Of a stretch of DNA of 13,195 bases, positions 3,001-6,000 are shown one piece after another. Position numbers: made by a program. Position 1 is the first letter of the stretch. Each line of letters begins with the position of its first letter. This stretch comes from Candidatus Eiseniibacteriota bacterium (GTDB lineage Bacteria > Eisenbacteria > RBG-16-71-46): the NCBI GenBank assembly GCA_044222065.1, contig JBGAOA010000089.1:1-13195 (forward strand), given 5' to 3'.

Positions 3001-6000
3001 CGGCCGCCGTGCACGCCAGGACGAGGAACAGACCGAAGCTCACGGCGCCCGTCACGACGAACTCCCACCACGAAGCGCCGAGCGGGATGTGATTCACGAA
3101 GCGGCGAGTGCCGAGGGAGCCCAGCGCCGCGGAAATCGCCACCGCGCCCGTGACGGCACCCAGGAAGATCAGTTCCAGCCAGTGCCAGACGAACCGCGTG
3201 GCGACTCGTCCGTCCGGCGGTTCCCCGCACGTCCAGTAGAGCAGCAACGACAGGAGCACGAGAGTGATCATCCCTCCGAGCGCGATGAGGGCGTACTCGG
3301 TGCGAGAGACAGAGGTCGGTTGATTCATCGGATCCTCCCGGATGGGCCGCGGCCTCCCGACTTCACTGGCGCTGCGTGCTGGGACGCTTCTTCCGCATTC
3401 AGAGTTCCGTCCGATGCAGGCACCCGGGTGCGGCATGCGCACAACATAGCGGGCGCCGGTTCCTGTAGCGGGGGCTCCGGCGTCGAGCCGCGTTTTCGCG
3501 GGCCGCACCGATTGCTCTTGACGCCAATTTCAGACACGCGCGGAGACAGTCGCGGAGCGAATCCTGGTGCCGCACTGAAACGTCGCTGGCGTCCCGACGG
3601 ATGCTCCAGCGCACGAATGCTCTCCCGATCTCTCGACGCGTGGCGATCGGGCAATGGCGCGCACGCACGACGCCCGAAAACACGCGTGCTATGAACAGCA
3701 CACAGCCCCCGCGTGATCCGCCCCCGGCGGAGTTGCGCCGTGAAGAAATGCACGCTGTCGCACCTGGCCGACGAAACGCTCACCCATCGCCTCGCCACTC
3801 GCTCGGCCGACGAGCGCGCCGCGCTCGCCGAAGTCGTCGCGCTGATCGGCGAGTTCGACGCCCGCAGGCTCTACGCCCCGGCTGGCTATCCCTCCATGCA
3901 CGAGTACTGCGTGCGCGTGCTCAAGCTCTCGGACGACATGGCCTACAAGCGAACTCGCGTCGCGAACACGGCGCGCCGCTTTCCCGCGATCTTCGACCGG
4001 CTCGCCGACGGCCGCCTGAACTTGAGCACGGCGCTGCTGCTCGCCCCGCATCTCACGGGGGCGAACGCAGAGGCTCTGATCGATGCCGCGAGCAACGGGA
4101 CGCGGGCCGACGTCGAACAACTGCTCGCGGAGCGATTCCCGAAGCCCGACGTCCCGACGACGCTCGTGGCGCTGCCGCCGGCCAGAGCCGCCGTGACGAC
4201 CGTTTTCGCCCCGGGGCGAAAAGTGAGCGCGCAAGTCGTTGCGAACACGAAGTGCGAACATGCTACGCAGCATGTTGAGGTCGCATCGGCGGCGAGAACG
4301 ACGCCGCTCGCCCCGGAGCGCTTCGCGCTTCAAGTCACGATCTCGGGCGACACGCAGCGCAAGCTCGAGCACGCGCGCGAGCTTCTGAGTCACGCCATCC
4401 CCGACAAGAACGTCGCGCAGGTGCTCGATCGGGCGCTCGATGCGCTGATTGCGCAGCTCGAGAAGCGGCGCTGCGCGGAGACGACGCGTCCCGGTCGGCG
4501 CACGAGCGACGGCAAGTCGCGCTACGTGCCGGCCGAAGTGAAGCGCGCCGTGTGGGCTCGCGATGGCTCGCGCTGCACGTTCGTCGGCACGAACGGCGAG
4601 CGCTGCGACTCACGCACGCGCCTCGAACTCGATCACGTCACGCCGATCGCGAAGGGCGGCGCTTCGACCGTCGGCAATCTCAGGCTTCGCTGCCGAACCC
4701 ACAATCAGTACGAAGCCGAGCAAACTCTCGGCGAGCGCTTCATGAACACGAAGCGCGAGCGCGCGGCCGAAGCGAAGCGCGAACGCACAGCACGCGAGGC
4801 ACGCGAGGCACGCGAGAACGACCCCGATCGCAGCGTCATTCCGTGGCTGCGGCATCTCGGCTGCTCGCTCGAGAGGGCGCGGGCCCTGGCGCGAACGTGC
4901 GACGCGCTCGAGGGCGAGCCGGTCGAGGTTCGGCTGAAGCACGCGCTGAGCTCGCTCGCGCCTGCGCGACCGTCACCCGTGCCGTCATCGCCGGGGGCGG
5001 TCGCCGCGCGGGCGGCGTCGCCGGCGATTGAGACACCCTCGTGATTCGCGGTGTCGCCCGTGGGATGACGCCGGCCCGGGGCTGCGTCAGACGACGCGCA
5101 GCACGACCCACTTCTGGCTGCCGGGTACGACGAACGGCGCGAGCCGGTCGCTGTGCGCGCGGAAGCGCGGGTCGCTCATGCCCGCGAGGCCGGCTTCGAA
5201 GTCGGCGAGCGACTCGAACTCGTACTCGTCCACGACGTGCGAGGCCGACGATCCGATTGCGCCCACGAGCAGGCGCGCGGACTTCGCGCGGCGGAACTCG
5301 GAGTGCGCGAACTTGTCCGCGCCCCACGCGCGCATCACCGCGAGTGCTTCCGACTGCTTGCCGTACACGAGATCGAGGTGCCACTGGCAGATGAACATCG
5401 CGAGCCTCCTGGCGTTCGAACGGCGGGGTCGCGGCGAGCGTAGCGCGCGGAGCCGTCGTCGCGCGCCCCGAAAAGCGAGCGGCGCGCCGGGAGGATCGTT
5501 CCGGCGCGCCGCGCGACGAGGGATCGACGCTACGGCGCGACGACGCTCGCCCCGCCGCGAGCGGCCTGCCAGGTGCGGCCGATCGGGCTGAAGTAGCCCG
5601 ACGTGACGTGATTCACGCCGCCGTTCGACAGCAGCAGCGGCCAGCCGGCCGGCGCCGAAGCGTTCGCGGTCGCGAGCGAGCGATACGGGTTCTGCGCCGT
5701 GCCGAGTCCCGCGACCGGGTTGTTCGGATCCACGAACGTCATCGGGATGCTGCCGCCGTACGCTCGCGCGATCAGCGCGGCGTCCGGGTAGAGCGAGATC
5801 GAACGGCGTTCGTACGTCCCGAGTGTCGCAGTCATGAGGTCGGCCGCGATCCACGTCGGGTCCACGTGCAGGCCGGTTCCGCTCGTCGTCGGGATGTTGA
5901 GCCGGTTCGGATCGAACGTCGCTCCGTCCAGCAGCGGAATCGTGGCCGCGGCCGACGTCCAGCCGATCGCGTGCCCGAGTTCGTGCCGCGTGGTCGTCAG

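Follow-up and report, generated by a model that had tools for sequence, protein, structure and literature searches.

Positions 3506-5044 on the forward strand of the window, which is the whole 13,195-nt stretch of a Candidatus Eisenbacteria genome (a sludge bacterium) that was analysed, hold a one-gene unit of about 1.5 kb. From left to right the unit contains a distal box around a TTGAC motif, a poorly conserved stretch of constrained length, a conserved promoter-adjacent region, an extended -10 element, an mRNA leader with a hairpin, and a gene of 434 codons for an HNH protein (3740-5044). The gene starts with GTG at 3740 (ATG in the copies on contigs C43 and C109) rather than at 3713, and ends with TGA at 5042-5044. 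Its frame is marked by a GC3 signal, and its GC3 is below that of the neighbouring genes.

The window segment 3401-5200 was searched against the genome by blastn, with an additional tblastn search, and the unit was found scattered at about ten loci. The window copy lies on C10, others lie on C81, C119, C45, C68, C43, C128, C109 and C34, and contig-end pieces are present on C93 and C115. By blastn the other copies are 73-91% identical to the window copy across 424-1371 nt; the copy family recognized earlier is thus real, but its range of 76-93% identity is not retained. Reading frames are intact in C10 (434 aa), C81 (418 aa), C119 (410 aa), C45 (410 aa), C68 (411 aa) and the divergent C109 copy (378 aa), and are broken in C43, C128 and C34.

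The unit has matches in 26 of 31 genomes of the same family or order (a count that takes in the unpublished genome G020), with 2 to 24 matches in each genome where it is present. The protein family comprises 22,123 cluster representatives at E ≤ 1e-3, and the earlier figure of 1918 matches among 8000 scored was reproduced. Members occur in metagenome-assembled genomes of Eisenbacteria, Myxococcota and Acidobacteriota. Plasmid and phage collections gave only matches to the HNH core, in two plasmids and one phage, and the IMG/VR viral sequences gave no match to the unit. The family is chromosomal, and apart from these HNH-core matches it is absent from the phage and viral collections searched.

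The presence of matches in most related genomes favors an ordinary cellular multigene family (of repair, recombination-control or restriction nucleases) that arose by segmental duplication and passive gene conversion, is neither selfish nor mobile, and uses its upstream module as a shared regulatory region. We consider this alternative unlikely. Three of the ten copies are broken, as is typical of dispensable elements, the matches per genome vary widely from 0 to 24, and the low GC3 relative to the neighbours also speaks against it.

Domains and mosaic structure of the HNH protein

Structure prediction and profile comparisons show a protein modelled as four domains. The first is a helical domain of residues 11-132 (3770-4135), predicted by AlphaFold with pLDDT 96-98 and aligned by VIA-align to 6s6h_B, 8qa8_A, 1vz0_A and 1r71_A with Z 7.0-7.6. 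With moderate confidence we regard it as ParB/KorB/Spo0J-like and DUF222-like, with a putative role in DNA binding. The second, at residues 195-250 (4322-4489), resembles ribbon-helix-helix (RHH) proteins, with moderate VIA-align scores to MazE6, TraM, NikR and ParB of pCXC100 (Z 4.5-5.4) and a PDB profile match to 3no7_A (E 0.031). The ParB-like and RHH-like assignments together span Z 4.5-7.6, a range in which chance matches between helical folds are common.

The third domain, at residues 257-330 (4508-4729), is the HNH nuclease domain. As noted previously, HNH is the sole Pfam match in the window copy (E 4.4e-5); it was also matched in 44 of 52 homologues. Residues C279, C289, D298-H299, C318, H321 and N322 are invariant in alignment A2, giving the pattern D-H...N...H-N plus cysteines and so covering both the HNH and the zinc residues, and the domain aligns to McrA, the IscB HNH domain, GVE2 and Gme with Z 6.5-7.3. 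We infer nuclease activity and a DNA target. A Foldseek search of the PDB with the HNH protein returned nothing at E ≤ 1e-3, and a PHROGs search returned HNH-only matches.

The C-terminal three-helix domain, at residues 361-407 (4820-4960), is similar to domain III of RuvA. Pfam RuvA_C (PF07499) was matched in 27 of 52 homologues with a best E of 1.1e-10, and is below significance on the copies of this genome. PDB profile matches to RuvA reached E 0.0034, VIA-align superimposed 46 of 48 residues on 7pbp_G (Z 5.9, rmsd 1.9 Å), and hhalign aligned the domain to residues 156-202 of the host RuvA (30% identity, E 8.9e-4). These 47 residues thus align to both host and solved RuvA domain III and could be modelled on RuvB; unlike RuvA, the protein lacks the junction-binding domains I and II, and the domain III-like tail is fused to a nuclease. 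The model of the tail with host RuvB scored 0.62, compared to 0.00 for the best of three controls. Of 157 solved complexes 116 attain this mark, as do 2 of 215 mismatched pairs. Contacts are shared between the runs to at least 88%, and the partner pLDDT is at least 82. Because RuvA-III/RuvB complexes have already been solved, the score may mirror no more than that likeness; with this qualification, the model supports a putative binding of the tail to host RuvB. Literature searches for HNH together with "RuvA_C" or "RuvA domain III" found no report.

Identities differ from one segment of the protein to the next. The N-terminal part falls into type 1 (C10, C81 and C128; 93-96% mutual identity) and type 2 (C119, C45, C68 and C43; 82-92%), with 58-62% identity between types, whereas the RHH and HNH segment is 86-96% identical across all eight copies. 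This agrees with the two N-terminal types and shared central part described initially. The identities of single pairs clash as well: C10 and C81 are 96% identical in the N-terminal domain but 58% in the C-terminal part, and C10 and C119 are 61% and 77% identical, respectively. Segment trees conflict with one another, and the copies are recombination mosaics.

A defence nuclease, McrA-like and acting in restriction or abortive infection, would read the two N-terminal types as differing specificities. Relatives are annotated as "5-methylcytosine-specific restriction endonuclease McrA", the HNH matches include McrA structures, and the copies sit in variable genome regions. However, no PADLOC family was matched, the likeness to McrA is restricted to the HNH core, no conserved partner genes adjoin the copies, and the RuvA-III tail and the ParB-like and RHH domains are foreign to McrA. 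Ten near-identical catalytic cores accompanied by pseudogenes would also be unusual for defence genes, and we consider a defence function improbable.

The upstream module, promoter and leader

The left end of the unit is formed by the distal box (3506-3535), whose alignment columns are invariant or nearly so. It consists of an AT-rich patch, CTTGACG (TTGAC at 3518-3522) and a T-rich patch, with the family consensus aaGAtT.C.CTTGAC[AG]g..TTtcGGG; upstream of it no conserved columns were found in the family alignment. The stretch that follows (3525-3625) is the 109 nt initially called hypervariable. It is 29-58% identical in pairwise comparisons among the copies of this genome but 80-96% identical between paralogues within other genomes, so it is not hypervariable in general. 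The best explanation for its variability is that the upstream module diverged long ago and that leader and ORF underwent gene conversion, a reading that the initial annotation had itself offered as the dull one. No small ORF was evident from codon periodicity (GC by phase 0.67/0.69/0.69). A and T are phased along the stretch with a period of 9.85 bp (permutation p 0.0012 with n = 42 and 0.0002 with n = 22), in a test that uses positions of an averaged profile of related sequences, so that the samples are not independent.

The promoter-adjacent region GATCTCTCGACGCG...CCCGAAAACACGCG (3626-3686) is 72-92% identical across eight copies and contains blocks conserved across genera (TCTCG, CGCG.T..GCG, GCACGG and CCGAAAAC). 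A small palindrome or hairpin recurs in it, and fixed positions carry hairpins about 3-4 times as often as in shuffled sequences. The module ends at the extended -10 element TGCTATGAA (3687-3695), with TG at 3687-3688 and the hexamer TATGAA at 3690-3695. In 76 of 84 box pairs, drawn from several phyla, TTGAC and the extended -10 (TGnTAnnA) are spaced 168-171 bp apart, and in seven of the ten copies of this genome the distance from TTGAC to TG is 169 nt. The module thus has fixed spacing and about 10-bp phasing. The nine-copy alignment bears out the order of CTTGAC[GA], variable stretch and conserved leader reported initially, and the length of 109 nt in seven of nine copies is consistent with the 169-nt spacing. 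Conservation of the module across phyla argues for long-term selection, which would suit the cellular multigene family.

The extended -10 at 3687-3695 is most likely the working promoter. TTGAC was considered as the -35 box of a conventional promoter and rejected, since no -10 hexamer lies downstream of it. The host lexA and recA promoters have the form TTGACG/TTGCAC-N17-TAnnnT, and a consensus promoter scan of 3300-5200 found no promoter-like site. The lexA-promoter motif TGCAC-N4-GTGCA, with 61 matches in the genome at up to one mismatch, is at no HNH promoter; the copies carry only GTGC-N8-GCAC across the -10. SOS control, which is reported for 13E12 genes (PMC13157036), is therefore unsupported in this unit. 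Three metatranscriptome runs gave only fragments, in low-depth contigs, of the flanks and of positions 3926-4183 in the ORF, with zero coverage of the leader, and are uninformative on transcript starts and expression. Half of the query words are present in 17 DNA runs.

The mRNA leader (3703-3739) has the C-rich sequence CCCCCGCG as its 5' arm, and the initial Gs of its Shine-Dalgarno GGAG (3729-3732) are paired within a hairpin at 3718-3730. In alignment A4 (23 sequences) its seven pairs are 90.1% paired, versus 22-53% when the partner is slid, and the alignment contains 10 G-U cells on the forward strand and 4 compensatory cells. The signal at the RNA level begins about 8-15 nt past the extended -10, and the distance from TG to the start codon is 53 nt in eight of the ten copies. 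The hairpin hides the ribosome-binding site. The promoter and leader hairpin assigned earlier to the unit are upheld by this pairing and the G-U evidence.

IscB/OMEGA systems likewise have conserved non-coding DNA just upstream of an ORF that encodes an HNH domain of the IscB subtype, and a variable segment of fixed length beside a conserved one might be taken as guide and scaffold, like the IscB omega RNA. IscB is the best NCBIfam match of the protein, and its HNH domain is among the structural matches. Yet the match (NF040563) is limited to the HNH domain, scoring 34.9 bits where the cut-off is 175, and the protein has no RuvC domain. No structured RNA was found in the module: Rfam gave no match (best E 1.6), RNAalifold placed no pairs on 43 upstream modules, the mean folding z-score is about -0.5 and equal for both strands, and subgroup folds, at -13 to -19 kcal/mol, are weak whichever strand is folded. 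In addition, TTGAC lacks a -10 partner, RNA-level G-U pairs appear only downstream of the extended -10, past which the transcript most likely starts, and the supposed guide is 80-96% identical between paralogues in other genomes. An RNA-guided system is thus very improbable.

Boundaries and insertion sites of the unit

Paralogue pairs within genomes share one aligned segment of 1.37-1.60 kb with 72-89% identity between unrelated flanks. In other genomes the similarity sets in 6-22 nt before TTGAC and extends to near the stop codon, and the whole unit, including the stretch that is variable here, has been duplicated. Copies of the unit therefore lie dispersed at unrelated loci, and their left boundary, 6-22 nt upstream of TTGAC, is sharp. 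This boundary is identical whatever the flank, which speaks against a cellular multigene family copied by segmental duplication. The 282 flanks of the family loci retrieved form small clusters only. On the other side, segmental duplication is indicated by the 98% identical 3' flank of C119 and C34, and some loci are orthologous with both flanks in common (L014, L137 and L146; L096 and L110), as expected of a cellular family.

Between tRNA-Phe/tRNA-Thr and the phosphohexomutase gene, 17 loci of relatives (a count that includes L189, from the unpublished G020) have an empty slot, and three have an HNH unit there, in one orientation or the other. The unit is oriented as the mutase at L152 of genome G012, inverted at L126, where its centre is just 67% identical to the G012 unit, and inverted at a contig end at L184 of G009. 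The family thus shows presence and absence at an orthologous site in relatives of other genera. One slot that holds diverged units in opposite orientations and is empty in 17 relatives argues against the cellular family, although the three occupied slots could in principle represent one old insertion followed by inversion and many losses.

For the window copy, homologues of the flanking genes were found in none of 30 related genomes, so no empty site can be given for it, and the initial description of the copies as lying between housekeeping genes does not hold here. At the C81 site, 17 relatives have a gltD-like gene but lack an HNH gene less than 1.5 kb from it. The neighbour on the upstream side differs too, however; with synteny broken, this is not a clean empty site.

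Terminal inverted repeats, target duplications and a conserved 3' end were sought across the family flanks and none was found, in agreement with the lack of terminal repeats and target duplications conceded earlier. Among 129 downstream flanks GTCAA occurs once and TTGAC six times, so the left box has no inverted copy. Pfam and NCBIfam searches gave no match to transposase families. An insertion sequence or transposon, having neither terminal inverted repeats nor target duplication nor transposase to its credit, was rejected; without such ends the transposition chemistry cannot be named. The missing hallmarks of transposons also count in favor of the cellular family.

Related systems and a proposed model for spreading

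The unit is similar to the REP13E12/13E12 (DUF222-HNH) repeats of Mycobacterium tuberculosis and other actinobacteria. Both are dispersed one-gene repeats of about 1.4-1.5 kb that encode an N-terminal helical and a C-terminal HNH domain, both occur in several copies per genome with some broken, and the copies of both recombine, the Eisenbacteria segment being mosaic at about ten loci. Among named Atlas clusters, DUF222 is nearest to the N-terminal half, with a score of 0.93. As stated previously, Pfam DUF222 (PF02720) does not match: a six-frame search of the whole genome gave no match at E ≤ 0.01, with a positive Corynebacterium glutamicum control, and 1 of 52 homologues was matched weakly (E 8.3e-4). 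The present family differs from the actinobacterial REP13E12 in its occurrence in Eisenbacteria, Myxococcota and Acidobacteriota, and may also differ in its RuvA-III-like tail and fixed-length module. It looks like a distant relative of the REP13E12/DUF222-HNH repeats.

To our knowledge, the function and movement of REP13E12-type single-gene HNH repeats, catalogued for decades, have not been explained. Judged by titles and abstract openings, the DUF222 literature contained no study of mechanism. In two reports, REP13E12/13E12 loci of mycobacteria are described as hot spots for inversion and gene conversion (PMC13061034, PMC13157036), and one describes a prophage attachment site within REP13E12 (PMC13061034). 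According to such recent work, few loci of a genome recombine as actively as these repeats.

Free-standing HNH homing endonuclease genes are a class known from phages, for example the mob genes of T4. They too are single nuclease genes with their own promoter, wedged between unrelated genes and present or absent at orthologous sites, with spread expected through break repair. Unlike them, the Eisenbacteria unit is chromosomal with ten copies per genome, and it encodes a much larger protein that also has ParB-like, RHH and RuvA-III domains.

Our preferred reading, to which we assign a probability of about 60%, is that the unit at 3506-5044 is a self-contained, selfish nuclease gene that moves rarely and undergoes gene conversion. 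The autonomous selfish element of a new class proposed initially is supported in part, namely in the discrete unit, its dispersal, its mosaicism and the slot polymorphism; the new class is not supported, because the unit resembles the known repeats of mycobacteria. In the preferred reading, the fixed-length module of about 170 bp would end in an extended -10 promoter that drives the HNH gene, and the leader hairpin would mask the ribosome-binding site and hold translation low. The protein, with its ParB/KorB-like helix-turn-helix, RHH and HNH domains, would bind specific DNA in a site-specific manner, and its own upstream module is probably among the targets; wrapped and helically phased, that module would then serve as an autoregulatory or cis-acting site. 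The protein would nick or cut DNA, and its tail may engage the RuvB branch-migration motor of the host. Repair of the breaks by recombination between copies would homogenize and reshuffle leader and ORF segments by gene conversion, and would occasionally place a whole unit at a new location. Recruitment of RuvB in the cell, and the nuclease itself as the driver of recombination and movement, are what we infer.

A more far-reaching version is an element free of transposase and integrase that moves through the Holliday-junction machinery of the host. A sequence-specific HNH nickase would bind the wrapped and helically phased end module (about 170 bp) of its unit and break DNA, a captured RuvA domain III would load RuvB, and branch migration would carry the unit or its cassettes into other copies and, rarely, to new sites. 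We offer this version tentatively, as possible but far from probable.

The HNH family is very large and abundant among uncultured phyla of soil and sludge. Several of its features provide testable handles: a module kept across phyla in length and helical phasing but not in sequence, a nuclease fused to a putative RuvB-docking domain, and the natural insertion polymorphism next to the tRNA genes. If the more far-reaching version is true, REP13E12-type repeats would gain a testable mechanism. If the nuclease drives conversion through RuvAB, it would represent a new route for the spreading of a selfish gene and would add a new cause of rearrangements to the genomes of these bacteria.

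Copies of the unit and their mosaic structure

The genome is a metagenome-assembled one of 4.21 Mb with 71.8% G+C, and activated-sludge metagenomes hold DNA near-identical to it. Blastn and tblastn searches bore out the initial annotation of a multicopy unit of ~1.5 kb, repeated across the genome. Intact HNH genes of 410-434 aa are present on contigs C10 (the window copy), C81, C119, C45 and C68, and C109 has an intact but divergent gene of 378 aa. The copies on C43, C128 and C34 are broken, and contig-end pieces were found on C93 and C115. Alignment of the copies places the start of the window gene at GTG 3740, 7 nt 3' of GGCGGAG; two copies start with ATG. 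In the C68 copy, the left flank is unreadable owing to a run of N that lies about 70-120 nt 5' of the TTGAC box. The C119 copy and the degenerate C34 copy share 98% identical sequence past the stop codon (about 9700-9900 and 140-340, respectively), so either a segmental duplication included the flank or the contigs are strain variants.

Identities among the copies were compared by segment. The leader is 72-92% identical and the N-domain falls into two types (93-96% and 82-92% identity within type, 58-62% between types). The RHH+HNH segment is 86-96% identical in all copies compared, and the C-terminal part groups differently (C10-C81 58%, C10-C119 77%). These values agree with the proposed mosaic of two N-terminal types and a shared HNH part. 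Because the segment identities disagree, the pattern bears the hallmark of old, diverged units that have repeatedly undergone partial gene conversion with one another. REP13E12/13E12 loci of mycobacteria are reported as gene-conversion and inversion hot spots (PMC13061034, PMC13157036), which matches the mosaic pattern of the Eisenbacteria copies.

The stretch between the TTGAC box and the leader had been called hypervariable. It is indeed unalignable in the studied genome (29-58% identity), but it is 80-96% identical between paralogues in five within-genome sets of other MAGs. Conversion would overwrite the conserved leader and ORF and leave the low-homology upstream stretch behind; the apparent hypervariability needs no hypermutation.

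Extent and possible mobility of the unit

In the five paralogue sets, the whole unit formed a single aligned segment of 1.37-1.60 kb with 72-89% identity. It starts 6-22 nt 5' of TTGAC, ends at about the stop codon and has unrelated flanks, which indicates that the duplicated unit extends from box to stop. Hardly any clustering was seen among 282 flanks. A repeated motif, ...CCATGT(C/G)CCCGGTCTGATCTGTTACCAGTGTGCCCGGTCTGAAC, ends 10-12 nt short of the AT-rich left end in 11 of the 77 modules (TTGAC box to extended -10) and occurs in several genera. It lies in the 60 nt upstream of the module at L127, L029, L055, L122, L128, L166, L106 and other loci of relatives. This motif was not found as a repeat in the studied genome; it could represent either a REP-like hot spot for insertions or a small element of its own.

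The gene upstream of the window copy (2591-3329, minus strand) is divergently oriented. Downstream lies a tandem pair of paralogues on the minus strand (5530-6558 and 6596-7552) whose proteins are 61% identical. Neither the upstream gene nor the pair has homologues in any of the 30 related genomes searched, thus the window copy lies in a lineage-specific region and the claim of housekeeping flanks does not hold for it.

A slot between tRNA-Phe/tRNA-Thr and a phosphohexomutase gene is polymorphic in relatives. It is empty in 17 loci of three families, where the two tRNA genes are followed by the phosphohexomutase gene within 45-215 nt. An HNH unit occupies it in one orientation in L152 (genome G012) and in the other in L126 and L184 (G009); identity between the L126 and G012 units is as low as about 67% in the centre. 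Six genomes (G015, G008, G002, G010, G007 and G003) have other content in loci L171, L174, L175, L176, L180 and L181, respectively. No HNH gene was found in the slot of these six loci, and a tRNA gene is missing from the 1.5 kb around the mutase gene or, in L175, lies about 1.25 kb further off. The slot may thus attract insertions in general. The unpublished genome G020 contributes to some counts (26 of 31 genomes with matches, 1 of the 77 modules, L016, and 1 of the 17 empty slots, L189); the conclusions are independent of them.

The mobility postulated earlier is favored by the discrete duplicated unit, its unrelated flanks and this polymorphic slot. Against it, the relatives showed no empty site corresponding to the window copy, the C81 copy offers a synteny break but no clean empty site, and the unit revealed neither terminal repeats nor a target duplication nor a conserved 3' end as hallmarks of transposition.

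The upstream module and the leader

The order of box, unalignable stretch and conserved leader is correct by alignment within the studied genome, and its meaning shifts once relatives are added. A TTGAC and a TGnTA box occur together in 77 of the 112 distinct upstream regions that were collected from relatives and other MAGs, and 76 of the 84 pairs lying 100-250 nt apart have a spacing of 168-171 nt. The same arrangement was found in contigs labelled Polyangiaceae, Kofleriaceae, Anaeromyxobacteraceae, Vicinamibacterales and Terriglobia, some of them possibly from wrongly binned MAGs. L090 (labelled Candidatus Limnocylindria) and L028 (G007) have an identical HNH gene end and downstream flank; as one DNA under two bins and phylum labels, they indicate that some cross-phylum labels may be binning errors.

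The promoter of the HNH gene is most likely the extended -10, TGCTATGAA (3687-3695, + strand), which is the right-hand box of the module. No -10 partner was found for the distal TTGAC. The host lexA and recA promoters are of the ordinary TTGACG/TTGCAC-N17-TAnnnT type. RNA-level evidence starts only 3' of the extended -10, with a leader of about 46-48 nt whose first bases are GCCCCCGCG and whose fold pairs the first Gs of the Shine-Dalgarno GGAG. Across 23 leaders, seven pairs are 90.1% paired vs. 22-53% with the partner slid. Together with 10 G-U cells on the + strand and 4 compensatory cells, this supports the suggested hairpin that holds the ribosome-binding site.

On the minus strand at 3683-3704, a palindrome around the -10 box, GTGC-N8-GCAC, and the TGTTTTCGG that follows it together read as a terminator-like hairpin. 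The palindrome is present in 4-5 copies of the studied genome and absent in other genera. The lexA promoter (C107:14842 in the studied genome; about 1415-1445 in L226) reads TTGACG-N17-TATGGT, and its spacer contains the palindrome TGCAC-N4-GTGCA; the same perfect motif also lies in the spacer of another promoter, TTGACG...TAGTTT, at C83:3457. TGCAC-N4-GTGCA is probably the LexA box of the host lineage and resembles the Fibrobacter-type box.

The ~150 bp between the boxes showed no coding signal, no match to an Rfam family and no consensus RNA fold. Foldability is barely above that of shuffles and alike on both strands (mean z -0.51 and -0.56, n=77), and three fixed positions are enriched 3-4 times in small perfect hairpins or palindromes. 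The mean A/T profile has a period of 9.85 bp, with permutation p values (0.0012 in the 169-nt class, n=42; 0.0002 in the 170-nt class, n=22) that are indicative only because the sequences are related. Given the length fixed at ~17 helical turns, the phased A/T and the free sequence, a protein-wrapped or looped DNA architecture fits better than RNA. The ParB-like and RHH domains of the unit's own protein are obvious candidate binders.

The HNH protein and its comparison with known systems

An AlphaFold model of the 434-aa protein, built on a 52-sequence alignment (pLDDT 83), resembles known domains with middling Z values. Residues 24-135 are like the ParB/KorB/Spo0J DNA-binding domain (Z 7.0-7.6) and residues 195-250 like a ribbon-helix-helix (RHH; Z 4.5-5.4). 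The HNH domain (residues 257-330; Z 6.5-7.3) is of the McrA/IscB/GVE2 kind, and its catalytic and zinc residues are invariant. Residues 361-407 are like RuvA domain III (Z 5.9, rmsd 1.9 Å, 46 of 48 residues). Foldseek with this model returned nothing at E<=1e-3. The RuvA assignment is independently supported by Pfam RuvA_C, which matches 27 of 52 homologues (best E 1.1e-10), by PDB profile matches of the tail to RuvA, and by hhalign to host RuvA (47 columns, 30% identity, E 8.9e-4).

Modelled in complex with host RuvB, residues 350-412 scored 0.62, compared to 0.00 for the best of three controls; 116 of 157 solved complexes reached that mark, as did 2 of 215 mismatched pairs. Contact agreement between runs was at least 88% and partner pLDDT at least 82. 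The model supports, but does not show, binding of the tail to RuvB, and since RuvA-III/RuvB complexes are already solved, the pass may reflect mere likeness.

The family is very large, with 22,123 cluster representatives at E<=1e-3, 12,394 at 1e-10 and 3,297 at 1e-30, under poor names (hypothetical, HNH, McrA, "RuvA, C-terminal domain"). PADLOC gave no match to the protein. An IscB/OMEGA system was rejected, there being neither an Rfam match nor a consensus fold and the best NCBIfam match, IscB, covering the HNH core alone (34.9 bits vs. a cut-off of 175). Without terminal repeats or a conserved 3' end, the unit is not an insertion sequence, and by searches of phage, plasmid and viral collections it is neither phage- nor plasmid-borne. 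In the way it works it resembles REP13E12/DUF222-HNH repeats as well as free-standing homing endonuclease genes. The curated DUF222 model fails, and the protein is a remote relative at most. None of the retrieved papers that mention DUF222 is on the mechanism, judged by title or opening abstract lines. We found no literature joining HNH with RuvA_C or RuvA domain III. The new features are the predicted RuvB-docking tail and the phased upstream module of fixed length, and both are testable.
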